Below are positions 14,882-59,388 of a stretch of DNA of 64,000 bases, one piece after another; the stretch's first letter is position 1, and each line of letters opens with the position of its first letter. Under the pieces are notes generated by a model, which was not told the DNA's origin, did no database searches, and was given only the letters and a program-made list of their open reading frames with translations. Made by a program: the position numbers and the translations under genes. Source of the DNA: Myxococcales bacterium (GTDB lineage Bacteria > Myxococcota_A > Polyangia > Nannocystales > Nannocystaceae); NCBI GenBank assembly GCA_020633335.1, contig JACKDU010000002.1:506730-570729 (forward strand). The letters run 5' to 3'.

Positions 14882-14882
<1 letters not shown>

Positions 14883-19419: not shown

Positions 19420-19420
19420 G

Positions 19421-19726
19421 CTACCAGCCCGCCTCGTCGGGGAAGACCTCGCGGTAGACGATCGCCGAGCGCGGCTCGGCCATCATCGACGCGACCGCGT
19501 CGCGCCAGGTCCTGTAGTGCTCGGTCTCCTTGTGACGCGCCGGATCGTCGACCGTCCGGTAGACCTCGACGAGGACGAAGCGGGTCGGATCGTCCTTCGC
19601 CTGGATCACGTCGAAGCGGGCGATCCCCGGCTCTTGCACGCTCGCGCGGGCGTTGGCGACGCTCGCCTCCTTGAAGGCGTCGACCGCCTCCTCCTTGACG
19701 TGGACGAAGACGTGGACGATGTGCAT
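19421..19726 (-). CDS. antibiotic-biosynthesis-monooxygenase (ABM)-like small protein
   Basis: 101 aa ferredoxin-like fold. It starts 1 bp after the Fe-ADH start on the same strand, so the two are probably co-transcribed. Confidence 0.6.
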
Positions 19727-27953: not shown

Positions 27954-27959
27954 GGCCAA

Positions 27960-27967
27960 CCTTCCTT
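27960..27967 (-). promoter_or_regulatory. Shine-Dalgarno-like element (AAGGAAGG) preceding the TTG start of FG-GAP paralog A
   Basis: The minus-strand sense reads caaaggaaggTTGgccTTGgac. The second TTG lies 6 nt downstream of GGAAGG. Confidence 0.4.
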
Positions 27968-28119
27968 TGGACTGACGAGGATAGCGAGGCCGCTCTCGGC
28001 CCCACAAGTCGGCGCGCGCGGGCCGAGGCGCCGCGCCGCCGCTCGAGACGCGCGAGGCCGCGCCCCCGTCGCATCGGGAGGCGCGGCCTCGTCCGCTCGG
28101 CGCGATCGTGCTCGCGCGA

Positions 28120-30276: not shown

Positions 30277-30806
30277 ACCTCCTCCTTCGCGTCGGTGCCC
30301 TGGCGGAAGCGGGCGTAGCGGATCGTCACCAGATCGCCGTCCTCCTTGACGTCGAGGGCGTCGAGGGCCCGCGGTGAGGGGCCCTCCTCGACCGCGCCGC
30401 TCAGCGAGAAGAACGACTTGTGGCAGGGGCAGATGAACTTCTTGGCCGACGGATCGAAGTCGATCGCGCAGCCGAGGTGGGGGCAGACGGTCGAGAAGGC
30501 GGTGAGATTGCCGTCGAGCTCAATCACCCATGCCGAGCCGATCTTTACGTCCTTCGAGCGCTGCCAGGCGTCGACCTGATCGGCGAAGAGGTCGACCTTC
30601 ACGGGCTCGGCGCCGAAGCCCTTGCGCTTGCCGCAGGGGAGGAAGCCGCCCCCCGAGGAGGTCACCTTGTGATCGAGCGGGAAGGCCACGTAGCCGATCG
30701 CCGGCGCCAGCGGGATCAGCCCGAGGCCCCCGCCGATCACGCCGACGCCGATCTTGAGCATCGTCCGCCGCGAGCTCCCCTCGCCCGCCTTTTCGTCGTC
30801 TGCCAT
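30273..30806 (-). CDS. Rieske [2Fe-2S] iron-sulfur subunit of the bc complex
   Basis: 177 aa. Tat-like signal SRRTMLKIGVGV. Rieske boxes CPHLGC and CPCHKS. Confidence 0.85.
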   Translation of the reverse strand: MADDEKAGEGSSRRTMLKIGVGVIGGGLGLIPLAPAIGYVAFPLDHKVTSSGGGFLPCGKRKGFGAEPVKVDLFADQVDAWQRSKDVKIGSAWVIELDGNLTAFSTVCPHLGCAIDFDPSAKKFICPCHKSFFSLSGAVEEGPSPRALDALDVKEDGDLVTIRYARFRQGTDAKEEV

Positions 30807-35023: not shown

Positions 35024-35261
35024 GGCCGCGGGAGCATACGTTCACGCCGATGTCACCGCAATGGCACGCGGACGAGGGCCGCGCCGAAGGGTTGGCGGGC
35101 CCCTGGATCGGCCAACGCAGGAGATGCGCCAAAGAGCCGCTCGCCGACGCGCGCCGCGTCGTGATCCGCGACACTCGGGAGCGTCGTGTTCTGCCACAGA
35201 TCCGCGCGACCCCGCGAGATCTACCGCTTTTCCCTGGCCCCCCGATTGCTTCAAGATCGGC

Positions 35262-35267
35262 CAAGGA
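35262..35267 (+). promoter_or_regulatory. ribosome-binding site (AAGGAG) for the lipoprotein gene at 35275
   Basis: aaggagatcgccATG: canonical SD 7 nt upstream of the ATG. Confidence 0.55.
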
Positions 35268-35274
35268 GATCGCC

Positions 35275-36126
35275 ATGAACATCCTCTGCCTCACCCGCCG
35301 CGCCGCCTCGACCACCCTCCTCTGCCTCGGCCTCGGCCTCAGCGGCGGCTGCTTCGACACCGGCGGTGCCTCGAACCTCGAGATGCGGGCGGCGGTCGGG
35401 GAGATCGTCGCCCAGGGTCAGGCGCAGGGGATCGAGAACGAGATCACCGAGCTGACGACGTCCTTCACCATCGGCGGAGGGGTCGCCGAGGTGGTCCAGG
35501 AGATCCAGGACTTCATCGCCTCCCAGGCGCCCTGCTCGACCGTGAGCGGCGCCGACAACACCCTGACCATCGACTTCGGGACCCTCGACGACCAGTGCAC
35601 CTACAACGGCCACACCTACGCCGGGATCGTGACGATCGCGATCTCGATCGAGGGCGCGGCGACGATCGTCGATCACACCTACAGCGACTTCACCAACGGC
35701 AACATCACCATGAACGGGACCAAGAAGGTCACCTACCAGGACCAGTCCCGGCGGATCGAGACCGACTACGCCTTCGTCAACAAGGAGGGGAAGACGATCG
35801 ACACGACCTCCGATCGCCTCCAGACCCTCCTCGACGAGGCCCAGGGGCTCGCTGGCGGGATCGTGATCAACGGCGAGCGCCACTGGGAGGGCGAGAACGG
35901 GCTCTGGGACCTCGACATCGACGAGGTCGAGGTCCGCTGGATCGACCCGGTCCCGCAGGCGGGGCTCTACTCGCTCCACACGCCGCGCGACAAGACGATC
36001 ACGATGGCCTTCGAGCGGGTCGACGCCGACACGATCGCGGTGACGGTCGACGGCGGGCGCTCGACCAAGGTCTACCACGTCACCGCGGCCGGCCAGATCG
36101 AGGAGCAGCCGGCCGAGGCTGGCTAA
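35275..36126 (+). CDS. lipoprotein of unknown function
   Basis: Start ATG at 35275 with the SD above. The ORF-track frame extends upstream without support. MNILCLTRRAASTTLLCLGLGLSGGC signal and lipobox. Beta-rich mature domain. Confidence 0.55.
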   Translation: MNILCLTRRAASTTLLCLGLGLSGGCFDTGGASNLEMRAAVGEIVAQGQAQGIENEITELTTSFTIGGGVAEVVQEIQDFIASQAPCSTVSGADNTLTIDFGTLDDQCTYNGHTYAGIVTIAISIEGAATIVDHTYSDFTNGNITMNGTKKVTYQDQSRRIETDYAFVNKEGKTIDTTSDRLQTLLDEAQGLAGGIVINGERHWEGENGLWDLDIDEVEVRWIDPVPQAGLYSLHTPRDKTITMAFERVDADTIAVTVDGGRSTKVYHVTAAGQIEEQPAEAG

Positions 36127-38072
36127 AAGGGCAGGAGCGGATAGGCCCGGCAGATCGTCGACCCGAGGGTCGACTTGACCGCCGACGCGAAGCTCAGGTC
36201 CCCCTTGGCGACCGCGTCGATGTCGAAGGCGGCGCCGCCGGTCGCGTCGGGGATCGAGGGCTGGCCGAAGTAGGGCGCCCGCAGGCCGGGCTTGACGTCG
36301 AGGCACTCGCACTGCCCGCCGAGGCTGGCGCCGAAGGTCGCCACCCGGATCTCGCGGTCGCGGAGCGCCTCGACGGTCTCGCGGTAGGTGTGCTCGACCC
36401 GCTGGCCGCTCTGGATCGCCGGCGCCTCGCCGAAGTCGTCGTCGGTCGCGTGGACCACCAGGCGGAGGGTCGACGACGCCGGCCGCCAATCGAAGCGGGT
36501 CGCCGCCGCGTGGAGGGCGTCGAGGGAGTTCTCCGGCCAGTCGAGGTTGCTCTCGGGGCTCTGGATCTGCCGGTTGGAGCTGGTGAAGTGGCGCCAGCGG
36601 GTGAGCTCGGCCTGGAGATCGGTGATCTCGGTGAAGGCCTGCCCGCCGTTGGCGACCAGGACGTCGTCGACGAAGACCACCAGGCCGTAGCGGGGGTCGC
36701 GGGCGAGGCCGCGGATCGCCGCGTCGACCTCGCCGATCCCCTGCTCGACCCGATCCACCATGAAGCCCATGGTCGTCGACACGTCGACCACGAAGACGAC
36801 GTCGACCTGCTCCTTGGGCCGGCGATCGGGATCGTCACAGACCACCTCGGGGACCACCGCCGCGGTCCCGCCCTCGCCGCGGAGGACCAGGCCGCCCTCG
36901 GCGTTGTGGGAGTCGCGGCCGCCGCTCCGCGGCTCGGGCTGGTCGCCGGGCTCCTCGAGGACGCTGGGGAGCGGCGCGTAGTCGCCGGGCACGACCACCC
37001 CGCCGACCACGCCGCCGACCACGCCGCTCTCGACCCCGCCGAGGACCCCGAAGCGCGGGGGCTCGTCGTCGTCGTCGACCGCCGCCGAGCCGGTCACCAC
37101 CGGGGCGTCGAGCACCCGACCGATCGCCACCAATTCCTCGGGCTCGCCGTCGGCGAAGAGCTCCGCGACCTCCCCGCCGCCGCCGAGCACCCCCAGGAGG
37201 CCGGCCGCGTGATCGTCGGCCGTCAGGATCTGGGCGATCTCGTCGCGCTCGCCGAACTCGGGCACGGCCTCGAGGAGCGCGTCATTGCCGGGATCGGCGA
37301 CCTCGTCCTCGGCGATCCCGCCGACCAGCGCGAGTTCGCCGCCCTCGGCCACCGGCGCGGCCGCGGGCTCGGCGACCTTGCCGACGCCGAGCGCGGCCGA
37401 CGGCCGGGGATCGCCGAGCGCGGCCGGCGGTCGGATCTCCGTCGGGATCGCTGGCAGCGCACGCGGCGCCGTCCGCTGCGGGAGATCGACCAGCGACGCA
37501 AAGAGGACCCGGCGAAACGCGCTCTCGCTCCCCTCGGGCTCGCCGGCGAGCTTGACCTCGGTGACCGGGCGCTCGACCTGGACCAGGAGCGCGACCAGCG
37601 CGGCCATCACACCGCCGAGCGCGAGGCTCTGGGCGAGATCCCGGAGGCCGAGGCGGAGCCCCCAGCCGACCCTCGGGAGCGGCTCGTGGACCAGCGTGAG
37701 GGCGACCTCGGGGTGGGCGCGGAGGTGGAGCTCGGCGCTATCGCCGGCCTCGAGGCGGACGGCCCCGCCGCTGGTGAAGTCCGCCAGGCGGTGGCGGACG
37801 CCCGCCAGGGTCACCTCGCCCTCGATCCCGTCGACGCAGAAGAGCCAGTCGCCGTCGAGGAGGGTGGCCTCGCCGCCCTCGCCGCCGATCCCGGGGAGGA
37901 CCAGGTTGGCCCCGCTCCCCTCGCCGACCCGGACGATCTCCCCGCCGCCGTACCCGCGCTCGCTCAGGCGGTAGCCGCGGAAGTCGAGGCTCACGCGCCA
38001 TCCGCAGGGGTCGCTGGCGTCGGGACGGCGCGTTCGCATGGGGCCCTTCAACGTACAACGACCCCGGGCCAT
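36123..38072 (-). CDS. transmembrane protein with an N-terminal FHA-like cytoplasmic domain and a C-terminal von Willebrand factor A (VWA) domain
   Basis: 649 aa. An alternative start Met at 38039 is possible. The N-terminal segment (GEIVRVGEGSGANLVLPG...ATLLDGDWLFCVDG) resembles a degenerate FHA. One TM helix (ALGGVMAALVALLV). VWA MIDAS-region VVFVVDVSTTMG. Confidence 0.6.
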   Translation of the reverse strand: MARGRCTLKGPMRTRRPDASDPCGWRVSLDFRGYRLSERGYGGGEIVRVGEGSGANLVLPGIGGEGGEATLLDGDWLFCVDGIEGEVTLAGVRHRLADFTSGGAVRLEAGDSAELHLRAHPEVALTLVHEPLPRVGWGLRLGLRDLAQSLALGGVMAALVALLVQVERPVTEVKLAGEPEGSESAFRRVLFASLVDLPQRTAPRALPAIPTEIRPPAALGDPRPSAALGVGKVAEPAAAPVAEGGELALVGGIAEDEVADPGNDALLEAVPEFGERDEIAQILTADDHAAGLLGVLGGGGEVAELFADGEPEELVAIGRVLDAPVVTGSAAVDDDDEPPRFGVLGGVESGVVGGVVGGVVVPGDYAPLPSVLEEPGDQPEPRSGGRDSHNAEGGLVLRGEGGTAAVVPEVVCDDPDRRPKEQVDVVFVVDVSTTMGFMVDRVEQGIGEVDAAIRGLARDPRYGLVVFVDDVLVANGGQAFTEITDLQAELTRWRHFTSSNRQIQSPESNLDWPENSLDALHAAATRFDWRPASSTLRLVVHATDDDFGEAPAIQSGQRVEHTYRETVEALRDREIRVATFGASLGGQCECLDVKPGLRAPYFGQPSIPDATGGAAFDIDAVAKGDLSFASAVKSTLGSTICRAYPLLPF

Positions 38073-38137
38073 TCACCAGGAGACGGAGAGCCGGCTCACG
38101 CCGGCCTGCAGCCCGGGGGCGACGCGGCGGGCTGACC

Positions 38138-39892
<1,755 letters not shown>

Positions 39893-40077: not shown

Positions 40078-40932
40078 CTACTTGCCGGCGAGCGCGTTGA
40101 GCTCCTCGAAACCTGGCAGATTGGTCAGGTCGGGGAGGATCACGATCTCGATCCGCCGGTTCTTCGCCTTGCCCTCGTCGCTGCCGTTGTCGGCGGTCGG
40201 CTTGAACTCGCCGAAGGACGCGGCCGAGAGCTGGGTCGGCGCGACCCCGGCGTGCTGGAGGGTCTTGAGGACGACGAGCGCGCGGGCCGACGCGAGCTCC
40301 CAGTTCGACGGGAACTTCTCGTTGTAGATCGGCACGTTATCGGTGTGCCCCTCGATCTGGTACTTCTTCTCGGGGATCGTCGCCAGGACGCCGCCGACCT
40401 CGGTGATCGCCGCCTTGCCGTCGTCCGAGAGCTTGGCCTTGCCGGTGTCAAAGAGGATGTCCATCGGCAGCGCGAGGACCATCCGCCCGTCGACGATCTT
40501 GACGTTGAGCTTGCCGGCCTCGATGAGCCCCTTGAAGCGGAGGAGCATGTCGCGGAACTCCGCGACCCGCTTCTCGGCCTCGGCCCGCCGCTTGCGCTGC
40601 TCGGCGAGCGCCTGGGTCATGTCGTCGATCGACTCCTTGAGGCGCGAGCGATCCTTGAGGAGCGCGGCCATGTCGGCGTCGCCCTTGGCGATCTGCTCGC
40701 CGAGGCGGGCGTGCTCCTCCTTGGCGGCCGCGAGCTTCGCCTCGAGATCGGCGATCTTCTGATCCATCACCGTGATCTCGTTCTCGAGCTCGCCGATCCG
40801 GGTCTCGCGGCCGGCGAGCTCCTGCTGGGCCGCGTCGAGCTGCCCCTGGAGCTCGGTGTACTTGGCCTTGGTGACGCAGCCGGGGGCGACGGCCACGAGG
40901 ACGAGGGAGATCGGGAGGACGAGGCGCTTCAT
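40078..40932 (-). CDS. OmpA/MotB-family lipoprotein with an N-terminal coiled coil
   Basis: 284 aa. Lipobox LVAVAPGC. Coiled-coil heptads (ELQGQLDAAQQELAGRETRIGELENEI...). C-terminal OmpA-like peptidoglycan-binding domain (NRRIEIVIL). Confidence 0.75.
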   Translation of the reverse strand: MKRLVLPISLVLVAVAPGCVTKAKYTELQGQLDAAQQELAGRETRIGELENEITVMDQKIADLEAKLAAAKEEHARLGEQIAKGDADMAALLKDRSRLKESIDDMTQALAEQRKRRAEAEKRVAEFRDMLLRFKGLIEAGKLNVKIVDGRMVLALPMDILFDTGKAKLSDDGKAAITEVGGVLATIPEKKYQIEGHTDNVPIYNEKFPSNWELASARALVVLKTLQHAGVAPTQLSAASFGEFKPTADNGSDEGKAKNRRIEIVILPDLTNLPGFEELNALAGK

Positions 40933-41044: not shown

Positions 41045-42505
41045 TCAGCGGGCCGCCTCGTCGTGGGTCGGGGCGTAGAGCTCGTTCATGAATTCGACGA
41101 GGAGGAGCTCGCGGACCCGGATCGGCAGGGCGTTGAGGACCTGGTTGATCTCCGCCATCCGCTCGGGGAGCGCCGAGGCGCTGATGCCGCCCATCGCCAT
41201 CATCTGCTTCATCATCGCCGGGTCGATGCCGGTCGACGGATCGAAGGCCGCGAACATCTGGCGGATCACCCCGACCAGGGGCGACGGCGGCAGGGCCTTC
41301 GCGCTCTCGACGCAGGCGGCGAGGTCGACGAGGAAGGGCTCGATCCACTGCAGGCAGTTGGGGTTCACCGAGAGGTGGACGTTCTCCTTCGACGCGCCGT
41401 AGCTGAGCTGCGGCTGGATGTACCAGCCCTTCATCTTCATCTCGTCGGTGAGGTGGAAGACGTCGACCTCGTCGGAGGTGAAGGCGATCAGGTTCATCTC
41501 CGGCTCGCCGAGCACCCGCAGGCCGTCGATCGCGTCGATCCCGGCGCAGAGGCGCTTGGTCCCGTCGAGGACCTGGCGGGCGATCTCCATGTAGCCGGCG
41601 TCGCCGAAGTGGTGGAGGACCGCCCAGGCGGCCGCCAGCGGGCCCGCCGACTTCGAGCTCTGGACCGTCGCGTTGACGATCGTGTAGCCGGTCCAGTTGG
41701 AGCAGGCGTAGATCTGGTGGCGCCGGAGCTCGCGGTTGCGGTGGAGGACCACCGACGCCCCCTTGGCCGCGAACGCGTACTTGTGGAAGTCCATCGAGAT
41801 CGAGGTGACCCCGGGGACCGAGAGGTCGAAGTCCGGCACCGGCTCGCCGAGGCGCTTGAAGTAGGGCAGGAGGAAGCCGCCCATGCAAGCGTCGACGTGG
41901 CAGAGGAGCTGGCGCTCGGCCGCCAGGGCCGCGATCTCACGGATCGGGTCGATCACGCAGTGGGCGTAGGAGACCGCCGATCCCACCAGGAGGATCGTGT
42001 TCTCGGTGATCGCCGCCCGCATCGCCTCGACGTCGGCCTTGAAGGTCACCGGATCGACCGGGGTCAGGACCACCTCGACCCCGAGGAAGTGGGCGGCCTT
42101 GTGGAAGGCGGCGTGGGCCGTCTCCGGCAGGATCATCTCCGGGCGGGCGATCTGCGGGCGGAAGGCCCGGGCGTGATCGCGGGCCGTCTTGACCGCGAGC
42201 ATGATGCTCTCGGTGCCACCGCTGGTGAAGTTGCCGACCACGTCCGCGTCGCCGCCGAGGTGGGCGGCGGCCATCGCCACCAGCTCGTTCTCGAGGCGGA
42301 GGACGCTCGGGAAGGCGGTCGGGTCGAGGCCGTTCTCGCTGAGGTACATCGTGAAGGCGCGCTTGAGCACCGCGTCGGCCTCGGCCCCGGGGTCGTAGAC
42401 GTAGGCCCAGGTCCGGCCGTCGCGCCAGCTCACATCCTGGGCGCGGAAGCTCTCGAGGGTTGCGAAGAGGGTGTCGTCGTCGAGGCCGTTGGCGGGGATG
42501 CGCAT
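41045..42505 (-). CDS. PLP-dependent group II decarboxylase-fold enzyme, sphingosine-1-phosphate lyase-like
   Basis: 486 aa. PLP-lysine motif SISMDFHKYAFAAKGASVV, which parallels SPL S-x-D-x-HKYG-x-PKG-S. The fold-type I aspartate-aminotransferase architecture is present. Confidence 0.7.
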   Translation of the reverse strand: MRIPANGLDDDTLFATLESFRAQDVSWRDGRTWAYVYDPGAEADAVLKRAFTMYLSENGLDPTAFPSVLRLENELVAMAAAHLGGDADVVGNFTSGGTESIMLAVKTARDHARAFRPQIARPEMILPETAHAAFHKAAHFLGVEVVLTPVDPVTFKADVEAMRAAITENTILLVGSAVSYAHCVIDPIREIAALAAERQLLCHVDACMGGFLLPYFKRLGEPVPDFDLSVPGVTSISMDFHKYAFAAKGASVVLHRNRELRRHQIYACSNWTGYTIVNATVQSSKSAGPLAAAWAVLHHFGDAGYMEIARQVLDGTKRLCAGIDAIDGLRVLGEPEMNLIAFTSDEVDVFHLTDEMKMKGWYIQPQLSYGASKENVHLSVNPNCLQWIEPFLVDLAACVESAKALPPSPLVGVIRQMFAAFDPSTGIDPAMMKQMMAMGGISASALPERMAEINQVLNALPIRVRELLLVEFMNELYAPTHDEAAR

Positions 42506-42583
42506 CGCCGGGATTGTAGCGAGCGACGCGCGGCCGCGGCCGACAAAGCCGCGATCGGGCCGCGCCCCTCTCGCGGCGCGGCG

Positions 42584-43153
42584 CTAGCCCTCGTCCGGGC
42601 GGGGACGGACCCGCAGGATCACCGTCCGCTCGGCCTCGAGGGCGCGATCGACGATCTCCGCGAGCTCGGCGACGGTGCGGCCGTGGGCGGCGATCTCGGG
42701 CGGCAGCCGGACCTCGAAGACGTCGCGGATCTTGGTCAGGATCTTCCGCGCGTGGGCCGAGTCGCCGCCGAGCGCGACGAAGTCGTCGTGCATGCCGATC
42801 GTCTCGTCGGCGAAGACCCGCCGCCAGATCTTGAGGAGGTCGCGCTCGGTCGCGGTCCGCGGGTCGTCGTCGAGGCCGTCGCCGGACGGCCGCCAATTCG
42901 GCCCCGGGAACCACGCGCTGCCGGGCACCCAATCGACCTCGGGGAAGGCCTCGCGGAGCGCATGGGCGAGCGGGAGATCGACCCCGTCGGCGCCGGCGGT
43001 GAGGAGGTGCTTCTTGAGCGCGCCCTCGGGCATCTTGAGGCGGGCCTCGAGGGCCTCGACGCCGATCCCGAGGCGCCGACAGAAGAACCGGAGCTGATCG
43101 CCGAGGCTCGGGACCTCGACGTCGCTCGCACCATCACCCTCGCGCTCGGTCAT
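42584..43153 (-). CDS. stand-alone phosphopantetheine-binding carrier protein (PCP/ACP-like) with an N-terminal extension of about 110 aa
   Basis: 189 aa. Carrier-protein motif DDFVALGGDSAHARKIL, where the GGDS serine is the predicted attachment site. The upstream region has no recognisable domain. Confidence 0.55.
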   Translation of the reverse strand: MTEREGDGASDVEVPSLGDQLRFFCRRLGIGVEALEARLKMPEGALKKHLLTAGADGVDLPLAHALREAFPEVDWVPGSAWFPGPNWRPSGDGLDDDPRTATERDLLKIWRRVFADETIGMHDDFVALGGDSAHARKILTKIRDVFEVRLPPEIAAHGRTVAELAEIVDRALEAERTVILRVRPRPDEG

Positions 43154-43274
43154 CGCCGCCTCGCTCTGCCAGCCAGTCTATCGTCCGCGAGCGCGGGAGA
43201 CCAGCATCGGCGGCCCCCCGGTGGCCCTGGGCGGCCACCGTGACGGCGCGGCAGCGTGGCAGCGCGGCAGCGCG

Positions 43275-44120
43275 CTAGGTCGGCGCGCGCCCGACCTTGG
43301 GGACGCCGCCCGGGATCAGCCGCGGCGGCTCGTGCTCGGGATCGCAGCGGTAGCGGGTGAAGTCGGTGAAGCCCCGCGTGCGGAGGAAGTCCTCGTCGAG
43401 GAGCGCCTCGCCGCTGAGCTCGGCCGGCGGCGTGGTCACGAGCTCGAGCGCGGCGTCGGCGAGGATGTCGGCCTTGCGCCACTGCGCGGGGCCGCCGATC
43501 CGGAAGTTGATCGTCGCCTGGCTCTCGATCAACGTGACCGGCCAGAGCGCGTTGATCGCGATGTTCCTGTCCCGGACCTCCTCGGCGAGGCCGTGGGCGA
43601 GCATCGTCATCCCGTACTTCGAGATCAGGTAGCCGGTCTTGCCGCCCATCTTGTCGAGGATCACCGGCGGCGAGCAGACGATGATGTGGCCGCCGCCCGC
43701 CCGCTCGAGGTGGGGGAGCGCCGCCTGGCTGGCGATGAACGACGCCCGCACGTTGATCTGGTGCATCAGGTCGAAGCGGGCGATCGGCGTGTCGGCGACG
43801 TCCATCCACCAGAGCGCGCCGGCGTTGTTGATCAGGATGTCGAGGCGGCCGAAGTGCTCGACCGCGCGGGCGACCATCGCCTGGATCTCGTCGGCCTCGC
43901 GGACGTCGACCCGCAGCGGCAGCACCTCGCCGCCGCGGGCCTCGATCTCGGCGGCGACCGTGTGGATCGATCCCGGGAGGTTGGGGCGCTCGACCTCGCT
44001 CTTGGCGGCGACGACGATCTTCGCGCCCTCGTCGGCGAGGCGGAGGGCGATCACCCGGCCGATCCCTCGGCTGGCGCCGGTGATGATCGCGACCTTTCCC
44101 TCGAGGCGGCGGCTGCTCAT
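43275..44120 (-). CDS. short-chain dehydrogenase/reductase (SDR)
   Basis: Start ATG at 44120; the ORF-track frame extends upstream. Cofactor motif TGASRGIGR, NNAG and the catalytic YxxxK (YLISKYG). Confidence 0.8.
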   Translation of the reverse strand: MSSRRLEGKVAIITGASRGIGRVIALRLADEGAKIVVAAKSEVERPNLPGSIHTVAAEIEARGGEVLPLRVDVREADEIQAMVARAVEHFGRLDILINNAGALWWMDVADTPIARFDLMHQINVRASFIASQAALPHLERAGGGHIIVCSPPVILDKMGGKTGYLISKYGMTMLAHGLAEEVRDRNIAINALWPVTLIESQATINFRIGGPAQWRKADILADAALELVTTPPAELSGEALLDEDFLRTRGFTDFTRYRCDPEHEPPRLIPGGVPKVGRAPT

Positions 44121-44515
44121 TGTCCGGGCTCCTTCTGGACCAGCTCGCAGCGACCGGCCTCCGCGTTGCATACCGCGTCGAAGGCCGACGGGTCCAGGCA
44201 GCCGGCCATCGTGCACTGGCACCCCTCGTAGTCGGCGGCGAGCGACTTCGCGTCGGCGGCGAAGGCATCGAGGTCGACGCTCTGGTTGAAGGCGGCCGCG
44301 CACTGAAAGGCGCCGAGGCAGTTGTTGGCGCCGGCGAGGGCGTAGAGGTCGACGACCACGCAGGCGTCGCCGGCCCCACAGGCCTCGGCCTCCGCGCGGA
44401 GGGCCCGCGCCTCCTCCTTGATCGACTCGCAGCGAGCGGCGCAGGCGGACGCGGCCGCCGACCCGAGGGCGACGGCGAGGGCGACGTGGAGGCGGTGGCG
44501 GATGAGGCGTGGCAT
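44117..44515 (-). CDS. small secreted Cys-rich protein, translationally coupled to the SDR
   Basis: 132 aa. Signal peptide, then a mature region with about 12 Cys. Its stop overlaps the SDR start (ATGA). Confidence 0.4.
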   Translation of the reverse strand: MPRLIRHRLHVALAVALGSAAASACAARCESIKEEARALRAEAEACGAGDACVVVDLYALAGANNCLGAFQCAAAFNQSVDLDAFAADAKSLAADYEGCQCTMAGCLDPSAFDAVCNAEAGRCELVQKEPGQ

Positions 44516-44652
44516 GCGGGCTCCTGACTCCTGGCCTCGATCCTAGCTGGCCGACGCGCGCCTTCACGCCGTCCACGCCCGGGCCCTCGCCGCAAAAATC
44601 GACGGGGCGCCGGCCGCTGGCCGACGCCCCGCAGGCCGCCTCGACCTCGCGG

Positions 44653-45987
44653 TCAGGCGAAGAGGGTCATCGGCGCCTCGAGGAGCTTCTTCAAGGTCGC
44701 CAGGAAGCGGGCGTTGTCGGCCCCGTCGAAGAGGCGGTGGTCGCTGCAGAGGGTGCAGCGCATCACCTTGCGGATCACCATCTGCCCGGCCTCGACGACG
44801 ACCTCGTCGCTGATCGCCCCGACCGCCAGGATCGCCCCCTCGCCGGGGTTGACGACCGCGGTGAAGGCCTCGATCCCGAACATCCCGAGGTTCGACACCG
44901 TGAAGGTCGAGCCGCTCATCTCCTCGGGGCGCAGGGTCTTGTCCTTCGCCCGCTTGCCGAGGTCGCGGGTGTCGAGCGAGATCCGCTTGATCGTCTTCTG
45001 ATCGGCGTGGCGGACCACCGGGACCACGAGGCCGCCGTCGACCGCGACCGCCACCCCGACGTGGACGTCGCCGTACTCGACCAGGCCCTCTGGCGTGTAG
45101 GCGCCGTTGACCCGCGGGTGGATCCGCAGCGCCTTGGCGACCGCCAGGATCAGGAAGTCGTTGAACGAGATCTTGATGCCGTTCAGCGACTCGTTGAGCT
45201 CGTTGCGGAGCTTCGACACCCGGTCCATGTGGATCGGGATCGTCAGGTTGATGTGGGGGATCTCCCGCTTCGACTCGGTCATCCGCCGGGCGATCGTCTT
45301 CCGCATCGGCGTCAGCTTGACCTGGCGGTTGGGGAAGGTCGCGTAGGGGCGGCCGTTCTCGTCGACCTCGGAGGCGGCGCCAGCGGCCTGGACCGCCGCC
45401 TTGGCGGCCGCCGGGCTCGCGCTCGCGGCCTGGGCGGCGGCGAGGACGTCGGCCTTGATCACCCGACCGTGGGGGCCGCTGCCGGGGATCGACGCGAGCT
45501 CGAGGCCGTGCTCGCGGGCCAGGCGGCGGGCGAGCGGTGACGCGGGAATTCGGTCGCTGTTGGCCTCGGACGGCGCCGGAGCGGCCGGCGCCGAGGGCGC
45601 AGCCGGGGCCGGGGCCGGGGCGGCGACCGGAGCCAGGGCCGGCACGGCGCTCGGCGCCGACGCGGCCGCCTTCGCGGGCGCCGGCGCGGGCGCGGCCGGA
45701 GCCGAGGCGCCGCCGCCACGCTTCGCCAGCGCGGCCTCGGGATCCTCGCCGGCCTTGCCGAGCACGGCGATCGGCGCCCCGAGCTGCATCGTCTCGCCCT
45801 CGGGCGCGATCAGCTTGAGGACGATCCCGGCGTCGAAGGACTCGAACTCCATCGTCGCCTTGTCGGTCTCGATCTCGGCGATCACCTGACCGCGCTTGAC
45901 CTTGTCGCCGACGGCGACCCGCCACTTGGCGATCACGCCCTCTTCCATCGTATCGGTGAGCCGGGGGAGCTCGACGACGGTTGCCAT
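44653..45987 (-). CDS. pdhC: dihydrolipoyllysine-residue acetyltransferase, E2 component of the pyruvate dehydrogenase complex
   Basis: 444 aa. Lipoyl domain EIETDKATMEFESF. Ala/Pro linker. Subunit-binding domain. Catalytic domain with DHRLFDGA. Confidence 0.85.
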   Translation of the reverse strand: MATVVELPRLTDTMEEGVIAKWRVAVGDKVKRGQVIAEIETDKATMEFESFDAGIVLKLIAPEGETMQLGAPIAVLGKAGEDPEAALAKRGGGASAPAAPAPAPAKAAASAPSAVPALAPVAAPAPAPAAPSAPAAPAPSEANSDRIPASPLARRLAREHGLELASIPGSGPHGRVIKADVLAAAQAASASPAAAKAAVQAAGAASEVDENGRPYATFPNRQVKLTPMRKTIARRMTESKREIPHINLTIPIHMDRVSKLRNELNESLNGIKISFNDFLILAVAKALRIHPRVNGAYTPEGLVEYGDVHVGVAVAVDGGLVVPVVRHADQKTIKRISLDTRDLGKRAKDKTLRPEEMSGSTFTVSNLGMFGIEAFTAVVNPGEGAILAVGAISDEVVVEAGQMVIRKVMRCTLCSDHRLFDGADNARFLATLKKLLEAPMTLFA

Positions 45988-46033
45988 GGGATTCCTCGCT
46001 CTCTCGCTTCTCGGAAGGTTCTCGGGCTGCGGC

Positions 46034-47014
<981 letters not shown>

Positions 47015-47040
47015 CGCTCGGGCTCCTGCTTCTCTCGGAA

Positions 47041-48057
47041 CTAGCTCTCGATGGTGATGTTGCGGAAGCGCGCCTCGGGCTCGGGCACCGGCGACTCCTC
47101 GGCGAACTCGACCGCCGCCTCCATCTCGTCGACGACCTCGGCGTCGAGCGCCTCGAGCTCGTCCTCGGAGAGCCCGTGGTGCTCGTGGAGGGCGCGGTAG
47201 GTCCGCTCCAGGGGATCCCAGCGCCGCCACTCCTCGACCTCCTCCTTGCCGCGGTACTTGCCGGGGTCGCTCATCGAGTGGCCGCGGAAGCGGTAGGTGA
47301 TCAGCTCCACGAGCGCCGGCTTGCTCTCCTCGCGGGCGCGCTTGACGATCGCCCCGAGGCGCTCGGCGGTCTCGGCGACGCTGGTCACCCGGAATCGGTC
47401 CGAGATCATCCCGTAGCCCGGCGCCTTGAGGGTGATGTCGTCGACCGGGACCGAGCGGCTGAGCGGCGTCCCCATCGAGTAGCGGTTGTTCTCGACGACG
47501 TAGACGATCGGCAGCTTCCAGAGGCCGGCGAGGGTCCAGCCCTCGTGGGTCGGGCCGATCGCCAGGGCGCCGTCGCCGAGGAAGCAGAGGGTGACGCCGC
47601 CGTCCTTGAGGTACTTCGAGGCGAAGGCGTGGCCGGCCGCGACCGGCGAGTGGTTGCCGACGATCGCGTAGCCGCCCCAGAGCTGGTGGGCGCGGTCGAA
47701 GAAGTGCATCGACCCGCCGACGCCGGCGACCAGGCCGGTCGCCTTGCCGTAGAGCTCGGCCATGCAGGCCCTGGGATCGGAGCCGAGGGCGAGCGCGAAG
47801 CCGTGGGTGCGGTAGGCGGAGACCACCCGATCGGCGGGCTGGAGGACCTCCTTGGTGGCGACCGCGATCGCCTCCTGGCCGATGTAGAGGTGGAGGAAGC
47901 CGCTGATCTTGCCGCGGGTGTACGAGCGCGCGGCGAGCTCCTCAAAGCGGCGGATCCGCAGCATCTCGCGGTACCAGCGGAGGGTGTCCTCGCGGCTCTG
48001 GAAGTAAGCGTCGAAGTTGCCGGGATCGGCAGACGTCGGGTCGGTCGGAGTGGTCAT
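47041..48057 (-). CDS. pdhA: pyruvate dehydrogenase E1 component alpha subunit
   Basis: Start at MTTPTDP.... TPP-binding motif GDGALAIG...NN and the YR.HGHSMSDP phosphorylation-loop-like motif. Confidence 0.85.
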   Translation of the reverse strand: MTTPTDPTSADPGNFDAYFQSREDTLRWYREMLRIRRFEELAARSYTRGKISGFLHLYIGQEAIAVATKEVLQPADRVVSAYRTHGFALALGSDPRACMAELYGKATGLVAGVGGSMHFFDRAHQLWGGYAIVGNHSPVAAGHAFASKYLKDGGVTLCFLGDGALAIGPTHEGWTLAGLWKLPIVYVVENNRYSMGTPLSRSVPVDDITLKAPGYGMISDRFRVTSVAETAERLGAIVKRAREESKPALVELITYRFRGHSMSDPGKYRGKEEVEEWRRWDPLERTYRALHEHHGLSEDELEALDAEVVDEMEAAVEFAEESPVPEPEARFRNITIES

Positions 48058-48224
48058 GGCGAGGCCCGCGGAGGGTATCACCAGGGGCGCGAGCGGCGAA
48101 AGGCGCGGAAGCTCACCGGCGCGGGGGTGACGAAGTGCGCAGGCGCCTGCGCAGATCACCGCGAGGACCCCTCGCGCCTCCCCCTCGCGCCCCGTCGCGC
48201 GGGCCTCTGTTATAACGCCGGCCG

Positions 48225-51515: not shown

Positions 51516-52895
51516 CTAGCTCTCGCCGCCGCCGATCTGCGGCACCCTGGCCATCGCCGCGTCGATCGCCTCCTGGGGGTACTCGTAGTCGGTGAGCTCG
51601 CCCTTGAAGTAGGCGTCGTAGGCGGCCATGTCGAAGTGGCCGTGGCCGCAGAGGTTGAAGAGGATCACCCGCTTCTCGCCCGCCTCCTTGGCCGCGAGCG
51701 CCTCGCGGATCACCGCGGCGATCGCGTGCGAGGGCTCCGGCGCCGGGACGATCCCCTCGGCCCGGAGGAACTCGACGGCCCCCTTGAAGACCTCGAGCTG
51801 CGGGATCGCCACGGCCTCGATGAGCTGCTGGTCGTAGAGCTCGGAGATGATGCTCGCCATCCCGTGGTAGCGGAGCCCGCCGGCGTGGAGCGGCGCCGGC
51901 ACGAAGTTGGCGCCGAGCGTGTGCATCTTGACCAGCGGCGCCATCCCGGCGGTGTCGCCGTAGTCGTAGGTGTATGTCCCCCGGGTCAGGCTCGGGCAGG
52001 CGGCCGGCTCGACCGCGAGGATCCGGGTCTTGTTGCCGTAGTTGAGGTTGTTGCGGATGAAGGGGAAGGCGATGCCGGCGAAGTTGGAGCCGCCGCCGGT
52101 GCAGCCGATCACGACGTCGGGGTAGGCCTCGGCCCGCCGGAGCTGGAGGAGCGCCTCCTGGCCGATCACCGTCTGGTGCATGAGCACGTGGTTGAGCACC
52201 GAGCCGAGCGCGTACTTGTACTTGCCGCCGCTCATCGCCGCGACCTCGACCGCCTCGGAGATCGCCATCCCGAGGGAGCCGGTGCTCTCCGGGTTCTCGG
52301 CGAGGAAGCGCCGCCCGGCCTCGGTGGTGTCGCTCGGGCTCGCCGTCACCTGGGCGCCGAAGGACTGGATGATCGCCCGGCGGTAGGGCTTCTGGTGATA
52401 GCTCACCTTCACCATGTAGACGATGCACTCGAGGCCGAAGAAGTTGGAGGCGATCGAGAGCGCCGTCCCCCACTGGCCCGCGCCGGTCTCGGTGGTCAGC
52501 CCCTGCACGCCCTCGAGCTTGTTGTAGTAGGCCTGCGGGACCGCGGTGTTGAGCTTGTGCGATCCGCTGGGCGAGACCCCCTCGTACTTGAAGTAGATGT
52601 GGGCCGGGGTGTCGAGCGCCTTCTCCAGCCGCCGCGCCCGGATCAGCGGGGTCGGCCGCCAGAGCTTGTAGATCTCGCGGACCTCCTCCGGGATCTCGAT
52701 GAAGCGCTCCTGCGAGACCTCCTGGCCGATCAGCGCCATCGGGAAGAGCGGCGCGAGATCATCGGGACCGACCGGCTGGTGCGTTCCAGGGTGGAGCACC
52801 GCCGGCAGCGGCCGCGGCAGATCCGCCTGGATGTTGTACCAGCGCGTCGGGATCGCCGACTGCGGCAGGTCGTATCGAACAATCTCGTCACTCAT
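51516..52895 (-). CDS. trpB: tryptophan synthase beta-chain-like PLP enzyme (TrpB2 type)
   Basis: 459 aa. PLP lysine in SPSGSHKLN, GGGSNFAG and a C-terminal extension typical of the TrpB2 subgroup. Confidence 0.8.
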   Translation of the reverse strand: MSDEIVRYDLPQSAIPTRWYNIQADLPRPLPAVLHPGTHQPVGPDDLAPLFPMALIGQEVSQERFIEIPEEVREIYKLWRPTPLIRARRLEKALDTPAHIYFKYEGVSPSGSHKLNTAVPQAYYNKLEGVQGLTTETGAGQWGTALSIASNFFGLECIVYMVKVSYHQKPYRRAIIQSFGAQVTASPSDTTEAGRRFLAENPESTGSLGMAISEAVEVAAMSGGKYKYALGSVLNHVLMHQTVIGQEALLQLRRAEAYPDVVIGCTGGGSNFAGIAFPFIRNNLNYGNKTRILAVEPAACPSLTRGTYTYDYGDTAGMAPLVKMHTLGANFVPAPLHAGGLRYHGMASIISELYDQQLIEAVAIPQLEVFKGAVEFLRAEGIVPAPEPSHAIAAVIREALAAKEAGEKRVILFNLCGHGHFDMAAYDAYFKGELTDYEYPQEAIDAAMARVPQIGGGES

Positions 52896-53284
52896 GCACG
52901 CCTCCCAGGGTCTCCGCCCCTATGACCTAGCGAGGATGACACAGGGGACCGGGGCCGGATCAACGGTCGAGTTCGCCGCCCGCGCTCGCGGAGGCGCGCT
53001 TATGGGCGCCGCGCCGATCTGCTCCATCGGACATCTCGACGCTCGCGCGCGGGCGCAGGCCGGGCACCGGACGCTGCTCCACGGACGCCGTCTACTCCTG
53101 TGGACATGCACACACCTCGATCGACGCCGGCCCGCATGAGGAATCGCTCCGCGCGCCAGCGAGCGGCGCGCGCTTCCGCGGCCCGCCGCCGATCCCCGCG
53201 GGCCGCCGCCGCCGCCCGCGTCCGCCCCTCGCGGCTTGTGAGGCCGGCGAGCCGATGGTCTCCTGGATCGCAGGAGAGCTGGGT

Positions 53285-55753
53285 ATGGCGAAGGTGTGGA
53301 CGCGGGACGGGTTCTTCTTCGGGGCGGCGCTGACGGGCGCGCTCTCTCTCATCGGCGGCTGCGGCGACGACGGGGTCGTCACCAGCGAGAGCGCGACCGG
53401 ATCGTCGACGGGCGACTCGGCGAGCGCGTCGGCCTCCGCCTCCGCGACGGCCTCCGCCTCCGCGTCGGCCTCCGCCTCCGCGACCGACACCGCGAGCGGC
53501 TCGGCGACGGACTCGGCCTCCGCCTCCGCCTCGGCGACCGACGGCACCTCGACCAGCGACGGCACGGCGACCAGCGGCACCGGCTCGACCACCGCGGTCG
53601 AGACCAGCGGCGTCACCCAGGGGAGCACGACCTCCGGCGGCCCGACCTGCCAGGACGAGTGCGTCGACGGCGTCTGCGTCGGCGACATCTGCTGCCCGGT
53701 CGATAACGCCTGCGGCGACGAGTGCTGCGGCGACGGCCAGGTCTGCGCGTTCCAGACCTGCGTCGATCCGGGCGACGCCTGCGTCACCGCCAGCGAGTGC
53801 CCGGCCGACGCCTACTGCGACTACAGCCTCGGCGAGGCCGGCGACAAGGTCTGCGGCGGCGGCGGCTCGCCCGACACCGGCAAGTGCATGCCGAATCCGC
53901 CCCTCTGCATGATGGGCGAGATGCCGGACGATCCCAACGCGATCGCCTGCCTGCCGACCTGCGACTTCGAGAACGACGGCGTCTTCGAGTCGACCCTCAA
54001 GTACGCGTGGGGCGGCGCGAGCGTGATGATGCCGCCGATCATCACCCACCTCGACGACGACAACTGCGACGACAAGGTCGACGGCCGCGACATCCCCGAC
54101 ATCATCTGGGCCTCCTTCGCGGGCGGCGCCTACAACAACAACGGCACCCTCCACGCCTACTCCGTGATCGACGGCCAGCTCGTCAAGAAGTGGTCGCAGA
54201 ACCCGCAGAGCGACCGGATCTGGCCGGGCAAGGCGATCGCCGCCGGCGACCTCGACGGCGACCCCGGGGCCGAGATCGTCACCTGCACCGAGAACGGGCG
54301 CGCCCGCGCCTTCGGTCCCGACGGCGGCACCTACTGGGTCGCGAACGGGATCACCTACTGCGACTCGCCGGCGATCGTCGACCTCGACGGCGACGGCGAC
54401 CCCGAGGTCCTGGTCGAGGGCGCGGTCCTCAACGGCCAGACCGGCGCGGTCAAGGCGACCTTCCCGGTCAAGAACCCGGCGAGCTGGTGGCGCGAGCGGG
54501 TCACCGCCGCCGACCTCAACGACGACGGCGTCCTCGAGATCATCACCGCGAGCGCGGCCTTCAACGCCGACGGCACGCTCTTCGCCGACTCCAAGCTGAG
54601 CGGCACCTTCCCGGCGGTCGCCGACCTCGACGGCGACGGCAAGCCCGAGGTCGTCGTCATCGCCAACCTCGGCAAGGGGAGCAACATCCACCACCTCCAC
54701 GTCTGGGCCTACGACGCGAACGCGCCCGACAAGGCGAAGATCGTCCGCCAGGGCGTCAACATCAACGGCCCGCTCGCCCCCGCGCTCTGCCCCGCGAGCT
54801 CGAACGGCTACTCGGGCGGCGGCGGCCCGCCGACGATCGCCGAGTTCAACGGCGACGGCCACCCCGACGTCGGCGTCGCCGGCGGGATCGGCTACGCGGT
54901 CTTCAACGGCGCCAAGCTCATGGATCCCAACGTCGCCAACGCCGACACGCTGATCTGGATCAAGCAGACCCAGGACTGCTCGTCGTCGTTCACCGGCTCC
55001 TCGGTCTACGACTTCGACGGCGACGGCCGGGCGGAGGTCGTCTACGGCGACGAGCTCTTCCTCCGGATCTACCGCGGCTTCGACGGCTCGATCCTCTCGG
55101 AGGAGTGCAACACCTCCGGCACCCTCCACGAGTACCCGCTCATCGCCGACGTCGACCTCGACGGCCACGCCGACATCGTCGCGGTCTCCAACAACTACTC
55201 GGGCTTCGTCTGCCCGGGGAACGTCAAGACCACCGGCGTCCGGGTCTTCTCCAACCCCCTCTGGACCCGCACCCGCAAGATCTGGAACCAGCACACCTAC
55301 CACGTCACAAACGTCAACGACGACGGGACGATCCCGACGCAGGAGGCGCCGAACTGGTCGCAGCCGGGCCTCAACAACTTCCGCCAGAACTACATCACCA
55401 ACATCTTCGCGGCGCCCGACGTCTTCGTCGCCTCGGTGACGCCGATCTGCGACGGCGACTACGGCCTGCGGGCGCGGGTCCGCAACATCGGCCAGCAGGC
55501 GATCCCGAACGGCGTCAAGGTCGACTTCTACGTCGGCGACCCCGATCAGGGCGGCGTCCTCCTCGGCTCCTCGCTGACCACCAAGGAGCTCTACCCGGCC
55601 GAGGCCGAGGACGTCGACCTCGCGCTCCCGAACGCCCCGGCGAACCTCATCGACGGCTCCGACCCCGCCTTCGCGGTCGTCAACGCCGACGCCAAGTGGA
55701 CCGAGTGCCGCCCGGGGAACAACAAGACCGAAGGGACAGGTCTATGTGAGTAG
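53285..55753 (+). CDS. large FG-GAP/VCBS beta-propeller lipoprotein with a Ser/Ala-rich linker and a Cys-rich module (paralog B)
   Basis: Start ATG at 53285, preceded by AGGAGAG (MAKVWTRDGFFFGAALTGALSLIGGC lipobox). It is collinear with paralog A through the S/A/T linker, the Cys-rich module (CQDECVDGVCVGDICCPVDNACGDECC...) and the FG-GAP repeats (VDLDGDGDPEVLV, ADLNDDGVLEII, ADLDGDGKPEVVVI, AEFNGDGHPDVGVAG, YDFDGDGRAEVVY, ADVDLDGHADIVAV). Confidence 0.7.
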   Translation: MAKVWTRDGFFFGAALTGALSLIGGCGDDGVVTSESATGSSTGDSASASASASATASASASASASATDTASGSATDSASASASATDGTSTSDGTATSGTGSTTAVETSGVTQGSTTSGGPTCQDECVDGVCVGDICCPVDNACGDECCGDGQVCAFQTCVDPGDACVTASECPADAYCDYSLGEAGDKVCGGGGSPDTGKCMPNPPLCMMGEMPDDPNAIACLPTCDFENDGVFESTLKYAWGGASVMMPPIITHLDDDNCDDKVDGRDIPDIIWASFAGGAYNNNGTLHAYSVIDGQLVKKWSQNPQSDRIWPGKAIAAGDLDGDPGAEIVTCTENGRARAFGPDGGTYWVANGITYCDSPAIVDLDGDGDPEVLVEGAVLNGQTGAVKATFPVKNPASWWRERVTAADLNDDGVLEIITASAAFNADGTLFADSKLSGTFPAVADLDGDGKPEVVVIANLGKGSNIHHLHVWAYDANAPDKAKIVRQGVNINGPLAPALCPASSNGYSGGGGPPTIAEFNGDGHPDVGVAGGIGYAVFNGAKLMDPNVANADTLIWIKQTQDCSSSFTGSSVYDFDGDGRAEVVYGDELFLRIYRGFDGSILSEECNTSGTLHEYPLIADVDLDGHADIVAVSNNYSGFVCPGNVKTTGVRVFSNPLWTRTRKIWNQHTYHVTNVNDDGTIPTQEAPNWSQPGLNNFRQNYITNIFAAPDVFVASVTPICDGDYGLRARVRNIGQQAIPNGVKVDFYVGDPDQGGVLLGSSLTTKELYPAEAEDVDLALPNAPANLIDGSDPAFAVVNADAKWTECRPGNNKTEGTGLCE
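53431..53484 (+). repeat. in-frame 18-bp tandem repeat (ggcctccgcctccgcgNc x3) encoding an (AS)n linker
   Basis: Three near-identical 18-nt units lie within the paralog B linker. A further GCCTCC-rich stretch follows at about 53515-53535. Confidence 0.6.
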
Positions 55754-58990: not shown

Positions 58991-59388
58991 CGATCGCTCT
59001 GGAAGAAGCGCCCGCACCCAGCGTAGAGACACTAGCCACAGAGATTCACCAAAACAACGGTCTGCAATAGTCAATCAGCGCATGGGCGCCCGCCCCGCTC
59101 GCACTCCTGTCCTTTCAGACATCCTTCCATCGCGTCACCGTCAGCGAGCGGGGAGCGGTCGTCGAGCCACCGGCGACGCTTCGCCGACGACGACGTCTCA
59201 CACCACACGACCGCGCCGACCCAGGTCACGCGCGCCATCGCTCGCGGCTCGCGTCGCGCTCGCCCGCGCCCCCGGCGAAGCGCGGCTCAGTGGGGGCGCG
59301 GCGACCTGCGGCCCGGCCCTGCGGATGGCCCGCGACCGGCGGATGCCGAGCTGTCCCCGCCGCGCGCCATCCACTACGATCGTCTCCG

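Follow-up and report, generated by a model that had tools for sequence, protein, structure and literature searches.

Do four consecutive genes that share a strand beside a conserved operon act together in one pathway, or have they come together at a common site? This question is raised by positions 41045-44515 of a 64-kb stretch of DNA (hereafter, the window) from a Myxococcales bacterium (contig JACKDU010000002.1). A preliminary description of the window had noted four consecutive minus-strand genes there, directly following a pyruvate dehydrogenase (pdh) operon, and had proposed that they constitute a candidate module of sphingoid-base or N-acyl-amino-lipid metabolism. All four open reading frames (ORFs) are present on the minus strand as described, encoding an enzyme that depends on pyridoxal 5'-phosphate (PLP enzyme; 41045-42505; 486 aa), a carrier protein (42584-43153; 189 aa), a short-chain dehydrogenase/reductase (SDR; 43275-44120; 281 aa), and a Cys-rich predicted lipoprotein (44117-44515; 132 aa).

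We lean towards a reading in which these genes are not a four-gene pathway but mark the junction of the pdh operon with an older resident PLP gene, whose product would be a stand-alone member of a lineage that is sister to the sphingosine-1-phosphate (S1P) lyases (SPLs). The junction between the gene for pdh E2 and the PLP gene would be a permissive site at which carrier, SDR, and lipoprotein genes were gained in sublineages, with up to three unrelated genes occupying it in one Nannocystaceae-related lineage. The PLP enzyme would need no carrier protein, the SDR would be a facultative insertion, and the Cys-rich lipoprotein would be unique to this genome.

Distribution of the four genes among syntenic loci

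The comparison covered fourteen loci with a common gene order, bioB / pdhABC ... ffh. The PLP gene is present in all 14 and the carrier gene in 12, each time immediately upstream of the PLP gene. The SDR gene is present in seven loci (the window, L001, L006, L008, L010, L014, and L019) and is missing from five carrier-bearing loci, and the Cys-rich gene is present in one (the window only). Because of these counts, the four genes are not co-conserved, and the four-gene sphingoid or amino-lipid module that had been proposed does not withstand comparison with related genomes. Dissolving the module in this way averts the annotation of a false pathway.

The pdh block (44653-48159, minus strand) comprises E1alpha (47041 to about 48060), E1beta (46034 to about 47040), and E2 (44653-45987), lies directly upstream of the four genes on the same strand, and is kept in all syntenic loci. 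The pdh operon does precede the four genes, as had been described, but a terminator-like hairpin intervenes. In two sister lineages (L022 and L023), the PLP start codon lies 22-24 bp past the stop codon of pdh E2 and is preceded by GGAG, with no carrier or SDR gene at the junction (L022:5960-6010 and L023:925-970). The enzymes encoded at these two loci are 69% and 71% identical to that of the window, and their genes are probably co-transcribed with the pyruvate dehydrogenase genes, a link of the SPL-like enzyme with pdh in this bacterial order. Among homologs from Binatia and other phyla (66-69% identity), the genomic surroundings are unrelated, and no carrier, SDR, or recurring partner was found nearby.

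Downstream of the PLP gene, the window encodes a coiled-coil OmpA-family lipoprotein (40078-40932, minus strand; Pfam OmpA), a neighbor also found in L008, L011, L022, and L023, followed by ffh (38138-39892), which is convergent to the genes on the PLP side.

The SDR is HSDL2-like and belongs to the NCBIfam PRK08278 subfamily, with a score of 323.9 bits against NF006133 (cutoff 250). It carries TGASRGIG (TGxxxGxG) and YLISK (YxxxK) motifs, and its PDB matches are HSDL2-like structures at about 1e-62 to 1e-70 (3e03, 1e-70; human HSDL2, 1e-62). When compared to the HSDL2-like SDRs 3E03, 3SC4, and human HSDL2 (3KVO), the protein is above the subfamily cutoff and is without an SCP2 domain. Its ATG overlaps the TGA of the Cys-rich ORF (...GGA CAA TGA GCA...), such that the ATGA overlap noted earlier can be read directly in the sequence. 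The Cys-rich ORF encodes a signal peptide, a lipobox-like ASAC, and 11 Cys, in agreement with its description as a small secreted protein; with AGGAG 8 nt before its ATG and a G+C fraction at third codon positions (GC3) of 0.92, it looks to be coding. No match to Pfam, NCBIfam, or PADLOC was detected for this protein, and no relatives were identified in 11 related loci (tblastn) or in JGI metagenomes; further syntenic loci have no space for the gene. The Cys-rich lipoprotein is therefore predicted to be genome-specific, and it is predicted to be translationally coupled to the SDR.

We regard it as highly improbable that the four genes form one sphingoid-base or N-acyl-amino-lipid module aided by a distant kinase, acyltransferase, ligase, and desaturase. 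Such a module would be in keeping with the shared strand, the consecutive order, the ATGA overlap, and the SPL-like nature of the PLP enzyme. The lipid-related genes that it invokes are also real, since Pfam identified the domains of a lipid kinase (DAGK_cat and YegS_C; 198-1109), an acyltransferase (Acyltransferase; 1118-1933), and a cytochrome-b5 desaturase (Cyt-b5 and FA_desaturase; 16919-18262, plus strand), and the window opens with the C-terminal end of an AMP-binding enzyme. However, the kinase, acyltransferase, and desaturase are 23-41 kb from the locus, and no linkage of them to the PLP locus was found in any relative examined; their proposed membership in a module is not upheld. The AMP-binding fragment, at the 5' edge and ~41 kb from the carrier gene, is the sole ligase-type feature in the window. 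When the candidate coding ORFs of the window were scanned with Pfam, no alpha-oxoamine synthase (and hence no Spt), condensation domain, phosphopantetheinyl transferase (PPTase), or complete adenylation/ligase gene was detected. The module is further opposed by the distribution of the genes among the 14 loci, by the lack of relatives of the Cys-rich gene, and by promoter-like elements and a hairpin inside the array (described below).

Several relatives (L005, L006, and L013, at about 12.5-14.1 kb) encode a PlsC-type acyltransferase (~250 aa) within a few genes of the SPL-like one, which could be read in favor of a lipid module, and one is directly adjacent and convergent in the locus of one distant homolog (L017:7493-8233). 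This recurrence is too inconsistent to call linkage.

The locus had also been described as unlike the bacterial ceramide pathway (Spt, ACP, acyl-ACP synthetase, CerR, bCerS), and this is borne out by the lack of an alpha-oxoamine synthase-family enzyme in the Pfam scans. The likeness between the two consists of a PLP enzyme, whose ancestry is related to sphingolipid enzymes, beside a small carrier protein, with a reductase in half of the loci. In contrast to the ceramide pathway, the PLP enzyme of the locus has a lyase/decarboxylase fold rather than that of an alpha-oxoamine synthase, the carrier is a peptidyl carrier protein (PCP) rather than an acyl carrier protein (ACP), neither an acyl-ACP synthetase nor a ceramide synthase is encoded at the locus, and the genes are not co-conserved.

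Relatives and active site of the PLP enzyme

The lysine motif of the PLP enzyme (SISMDFHKYAFAAKGASVV) had been assigned to the S1P lyase type rather than to the glutamate decarboxylase (GAD) type. The enzyme matches Pfam Pyridoxal_deC, and its closest PDB sequences are S1P lyases (StSPL, 3mad, 4.6e-94; human, 5e-83; Burkholderia, 1e-79; yeast, 1e-71), far ahead of MfnA (1e-24) and glutamate decarboxylases (1e-13 to 1e-17). Because of this ranking, the enzyme is SPL-type and not GAD-type at the level of its nearest relatives, and the assignment made from the motif stands. Identity to StSPL is 42% over ~400 residues, a distance like that of the experimentally active Burkholderia S1P lyases, which exhibit 43-44% identity to StSPL (PMC5234717). 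Screening with PADLOC gave only generic fold-level matches to DndA and SspA.

We then compared the enzyme with SPLs residue by residue, using published roles for these residues (PMC6148460, Table 3; PMC10243590). The cofactor set of StSPL comprises the Schiff-base Lys, the phosphate cup (Gly168, Thr169, His310, and Ser353), the sandwich residues His201/Cys276, and Asp274 (PMC6148460). The PLP cofactor residues are all conserved in the window's enzyme (G97, T98, H131, D205, C207, H241, K242, and S284), among them the equivalent of SPL Cys276 (Cys207). The enzyme does not carry the full phosphate-binding set of SPLs (Tyr105, Asn126, Lys317, Ala103, and His129). Three of these five residues are kept (Tyr37, Asn58, and Lys248, corresponding to StSPL Tyr105, Asn126, and Lys317) and two are changed throughout the lineage, with Tyr35 in place of Ala103 and Asp61 in place of His129. 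The protein is predicted to be soluble, has no N-terminal membrane segment, and lacks the first ~68 residues of StSPL; a C-terminal extension of ~75 aa does not align to StSPL and is conserved across the lineage.

An exhaustive HMMER search yielded 131 representatives for motif comparison. Among these, the Tyr/Asp pair marks a coherent set of ~50 clusters (50% identity) whose members are ~480 aa in length, share the C-terminal extension, and carry the motif NGLDPT (the Tyr35/Asp61 lineage). Canonical SPLs, including StSPL, form a separate group with an NPLHPD motif and longer N-termini. In a neighbor-joining tree of 130 representatives, reconstructed without an outgroup and with the human, yeast, and Burkholderia sequences left out, 50 of the 52 Asp-motif sequences fell on one side and 74 of the 78 others, including StSPL, fell on the opposite side, with a bootstrap value of 46/100 for the exact lineage split. 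These observations provide moderate support for placing the PLP enzyme outside the canonical SPL clade, in a large uncharacterized sister lineage. The relationship to SPLs that had been suggested for the enzyme thus stands in so far as SPLs are its nearest relatives, and falls short in that the enzyme lies outside their canonical clade with two of five phosphate-binding residues changed.

The lineage retains 65-70% identity across phyla, with dozens of 50%-identity clusters in Myxococcota, Binatia, and Acidobacteriota. The automatic labels 'sphinganine-1-phosphate aldolase,' 'glutamate/tyrosine decarboxylase-like,' and 'aspartate aminotransferase family' are carried by thousands of bacterial proteins, and the lineage is often misannotated. 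A literature search revealed no characterized member of the lineage and no paper linking an SPL-like enzyme with a carrier protein.

Two further groups of SPL-like proteins were apparent in the comparison (representatives P0161, P0203, P0213, and others). A third large set carries NALNP, with Asn at the His129 position, and short proteins of ~420 aa carry Ser, Gly, or Ala at that position. Domain fusions were considered as hints to function and rejected, since the long relatives (P0190, P0142, P0183, P0146, P0029, and P0067) were uninformative and mostly reflected mis-called starts or chimeric gene calls. P0183 (1187 aa) has an SPL-like domain, with Ser at the His129 position, and behind it a tail of ~800 residues without any match in Pfam; a GSKF-type motif in this tail recalls a second PLP domain, and the protein could be either a genuine fusion or an artifact of gene calling.

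If the enzyme is a stand-alone relative of SPLs, a sphingoid-type (2-amino-3-hydroxy) substrate would form an external aldimine with it, and the C-alpha to C-beta bond would then be cut by an SPL-like retro-aldol cleavage. With Tyr35 and Asp61 in place of the Ala and His that bind phosphate, the head group would sit differently from that of S1P, in a pocket that would be smaller and would have lost its cationic character. These replacements make it probable that the substrate is something other than a simple phosphate monoester.

The S1P lyases themselves (StSPL, PDB 3MAD/3MAU; human SGPL1; yeast Dpl1p; EC 4.1.2.27) share the fold of the PLP enzyme, with StSPL being its best sequence match. 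The enzyme keeps all of their PLP residues together with the equivalents of Tyr105, Asn126, Lys317, and Cys276, but it differs from StSPL by Tyr35/Asp61, the missing N-terminus, the lack of a membrane anchor, the C-terminal extension, and its position in the tree. Burkholderia pseudomallei S1PL2021/2025 (PDB 5K1R) offers another parallel, being bacterial, soluble, at a similar distance from StSPL, and likewise deviant at Ala103/His129. The Burkholderia enzyme carries Thr56 and Gln82 at these positions and is still active (PMC6148460). Because it works with Thr and Gln, the two positions are not strictly diagnostic, and S1P may yet be a substrate of the Tyr35/Asp61 lineage. However, Gln carries no charge and retains the ability to hydrogen-bond phosphate, whereas Asp is negatively charged. 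Moreover, the Burkholderia enzymes are secreted virulence factors of a host-associated bacterium, whereas the PLP enzyme is widely conserved in soil and sediment bacteria.

Does the lineage then catalyze a lyase reaction at all? An alternative, which bears on the chemistry alone and leaves the question of a module untouched, is that the PLP enzyme is an amino-acid decarboxylase (yielding beta-alanine, GABA, or a diamine) that kept an ancestral Asn-x-x-Asp pocket, which SPLs changed to Asn-x-x-His. The main argument for it comes from an alignment with E. coli GadB, for which the GadB sequence used gave the same score and ranges as the 1pmm PDB match. In this alignment, Asp61 coincides exactly with GadB Asp86, and the Asn-x-x-Asp motif coincides with Asn83...Asp86. 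The Asp86 residue of GadB binds the distal carboxylate of the substrate and is thus a side-chain-binding residue of a decarboxylase (PMC12961736). The match to Pfam Pyridoxal_deC is compatible with such an activity, as is the stand-alone and widespread occurrence of the enzyme, with an identity across phyla that would befit a core metabolic enzyme; Tyr35 would fill the space where the Ala of SPLs admits phosphate.

We nonetheless consider a decarboxylase unlikely. The enzyme is far nearer to SPLs than to any decarboxylase, and while it shares the fold family and Asn-x-x-Asp with the group II decarboxylases GadB and archaeal MfnA, it is much less similar to them and falls below the NCBIfam cutoffs of both the MfnA model (TIGR03812; 222.8 vs. 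299.4) and the GAD model (TIGR01788; 110 vs. 380.4). The MfnA score was dropped as an indicator of decarboxylases, since canonical SPL representatives score the same. In addition, the enzyme retains the SPL-specific second Lys (K248) and the PLP-sandwich Cys. The position of GadB Tyr305, the Tyr of the catalytic loop, is occupied by Trp in both the PLP enzyme and StSPL.

The fold and general chemistry of the PLP enzyme are known; what is new, on the evidence of the aligned sequences, is a distinct and widespread lineage with a diagnostic Tyr/Asp pocket. It keeps the SPL catalytic core and swaps two head-group residues, one of them with a reversal of charge, and the Tyr35/Asp61 signature provides a simple marker for it. 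Should the substrate not be S1P, inferences of bacterial sphingolipid turnover that are drawn from annotation would need correcting, and a PLP lyase or decarboxylase with a new activity would lie among proteins now annotated as 'sphinganine-1-phosphate aldolase.'

The carrier protein and its adjacency to the PLP gene

The carrier gene is the only one of the three additional genes whose association with the PLP gene survives comparison, and this association is weak evidence of function, coming from one clade with inherited synteny. The protein matches PF00550 (PP-binding) at residues 105-167 (38.7 bits; cutoff 20.8), with Ser132 in GGDS (core motif DDFVALGGDS) and this Ser invariant in 10 clusters. 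Its best sequence matches are the T-domains of PvdL and the type II PCP BlmI. Modeling from the single sequence was poor (pLDDT 59), and AF2 modeling from a 10-sequence alignment gave a pLDDT of 73.5 overall and 85-92 across the PCP domain, which spans ~98-175 and exhibits the four-helix carrier fold. The C-terminal half of the protein is a real free-standing PCP of the non-ribosomal peptide synthetase (NRPS) type, and not of the ACP type.

The preliminary description had pointed to an unusual stretch ahead of GGDS in a stand-alone carrier, and indeed ~100 residues that are conserved among orthologs precede the carrier domain. In the N-terminal 95 residues, FFC, G29, L35, R38, G44, and L46 are invariant, and the Trp/Pro-rich linker that follows (DWVPGSxxFPGxxWxP) has DWxPG...PG..W.P invariant among orthologs. 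The N-domain (~15-70) is predicted to contain four helices at 17-69 and has no Pfam match even at E 10. Low-rmsd Foldseek matches of this domain were nearly all XRE-type helix-turn-helix (HTH) proteins, none of them significant (E above 1), and the sole match of its profile to the PDB was the HTH motif of HlyU, at a non-significant E of 1.4. The domain is acidic in all orthologs (pI 4.4-5.8) and, because of this, is more likely a protein-docking module than a DNA binder.

Homologs of the carrier are scarce. A search with the single sequence recovered the query alone, and a four-sequence profile recovered ~10 carrier clusters among 5.8 billion proteins; elsewhere, the family was identified in four species-level genomes in GTDB and on four JGI metagenome contigs. 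The carrier evolves faster than its neighbors, with the Ser and the reading frame always intact. In the dN/dS comparison, a GC3 of ~97% compresses synonymous distances, such that the ranking alone is usable, and it places the carrier above the PLP enzyme and SDR. When compared to free-standing type II PCPs (BlmI, 4NEO; skyllamycin PCP, 4PWV), the protein adds the ~95-aa N-domain and the Trp/Pro-rich linker, and it is encoded between housekeeping genes with no NRPS or ligase partner nearby. Collectively, these results identify a rare PCP that lies outside any biosynthetic cluster, is fused to a helical N-domain, and is lineage-restricted, being found in one clade.

Signals between the genes suggest more than one transcription unit. 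The strong hairpin after pdh E2 (44602-44632, minus strand) has a 14-bp stem with 12 GC pairs followed by ATTTTT, and would close the pdh operon in the manner of an intrinsic terminator. A -10-like TACAAT (42513-42518, minus strand) precedes the start codon of the PLP gene by 7 nt, and TACAAT or TACACT is kept in all nine aligned carrier-PLP intergenic regions, which are otherwise diverged. In the window, L001, and L008 alike, 7 nt separate the end of TACAAT from the PLP ATG; in other relatives, a GGAG-containing leader is inserted behind the hexamer (TACAAT/TACACT). This pattern suggests that the PLP gene may have its own promoter and that its mRNA in this genome may be leaderless or nearly so.

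A second -10-like element, TAGACT (43175-43180, minus strand), precedes the start codon of the carrier gene by 21 nt and is kept in eight of nine aligned upstream regions, with a conserved TGGT ~17 nt further upstream. Starting 2 nt past the carrier stop is a perfect 8-bp GC hairpin (42559-42582, minus strand; GCCGCGCC-N8-GGCGCGGC), which is trailed by a weak T-run only and was read by eye rather than scored in the terminator scan. A single transcript is disfavored because of the terminator after E2, the separate -10-like elements, and the hairpin behind the carrier gene.

Could the carrier and the SPL-like enzyme nevertheless form a two-gene system? In such a system, the enzyme might, for instance, use a phosphopantetheine-tethered aminoacyl or beta-hydroxy-aminoacyl group as its substrate or pass a product on to one, the N-domain would dock onto the enzyme, and the SDR would be optional. 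PLP enzymes that act on carrier-bound substrates are known, as with BtrK acting on BtrI in butirosin biosynthesis. The invariant adjacency of the two genes leaves room for a functional pair, since they are together in 12 of 12 carrier-bearing loci, whereas their surroundings vary in the SDR, in OmpA, and in an insertion of a kinase/regulator. The conserved motifs of the N-domain and linker are also in keeping with a pair, and the acidic N-domain suits contact with a protein over DNA binding. However, the carrier is missing beside the 69-71% identical enzymes in the same synteny, and the enzyme is solitary in other phyla. The separate and conserved -10-like elements and the hairpin past the carrier stop also speak against a pair, as do the faster evolution of the carrier, its restriction to one clade, and the lack in Pfam scans of the 64-kb window of a complete adenylation/ligase gene for loading, a condensation domain, or a PPTase. 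Taken together, these observations make a two-gene system improbable.

A more specific form of this proposal appears to us still more doubtful, namely that the HTH-like/PCP protein is a dedicated partner of an SPL-like enzyme that would carry out retro-aldol cleavage or decarboxylation on a tethered substrate, with the N-domain docked on the enzyme and the phosphopantetheine arm presenting or receiving an amino or beta-hydroxy-amino acyl thioester. To our knowledge, chemistry on a carrier-tethered substrate has not been described for the S1P lyase fold. Equally doubtful, and irrespective of the carrier, is the proposal that the Tyr/Asp lineage as a whole uses a non-phosphorylated or zwitterionic head group, which would define a new enzyme activity.

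Several observations weigh against the reading that we favor, that of a stand-alone PLP enzyme at a permissive junction. In none of the 12 carrier-bearing loci are the carrier and PLP genes separated, while other junctions vary; the carrier loci are all of one clade with inherited synteny, in which adjacency is indistinguishable from linkage either way. The alignment of Asp61 with GadB Asp86 leaves the type of reaction not established, and the Burkholderia S1P lyase functions with Gln at the His129 position. The split that separates the lineage from canonical SPLs has the low bootstrap value given above, from a neighbor-joining tree without an outgroup, and the promoter elements are identified at the level of consensus resemblance.

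Other features of the window

The best database matches of the window are metagenome-assembled genomes labeled Myxococcales or Nannocystaceae. In DNA of this composition (G+C of ~72%), codon-position GC was used to tell true genes from many antisense ORFs. Long antisense ORFs, such as one at 41063-43243 (plus strand, 726 aa) and one of 1024 aa at 35061-38135, failed this comparison and were rejected as high-GC artifacts. A scan of the window with Rfam detected no family, and no inverted repeats of at least 14 nt were detected between 40900 and 44700.

Convergent to the desaturase gene (16919-18262, plus strand) are genes for an Fe-dependent alcohol dehydrogenase (18259-19419, minus strand) and an ABM monooxygenase (19421-19726, minus strand). 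Together, these three genes (16919-19726) may constitute a small lipid or alcohol oxidation unit that is unrelated to the PLP locus. Two further PLP enzymes in the window, each of ~450 aa, belong to the PALP family (tryptophan-synthase-beta-like) and are encoded at 5059-6417 and 51516-52895, both on the minus strand.

Positions 10784-14882 (plus strand) encode, one after another, a PilZ protein, a protein with sigma-70 region 2, and an Hsp70-like protein of 913 aa, the last of which has a long additional C-terminal part without a Pfam match. At 28534-30806 (minus strand), a gene for a Rieske protein is followed by one for a 580-aa fusion of cytochrome b with two c-type cytochrome domains, which represents a fused bc-complex arrangement. 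Three FG-GAP-repeat proteins are encoded at 2074-3216 (plus strand), 25527-28007 (minus strand), and 53255-55753 (plus strand); these three and a DUF4215/fibrinogen-C protein (59290-60960) point to a rich repertoire of proteins that are secreted or at the surface.

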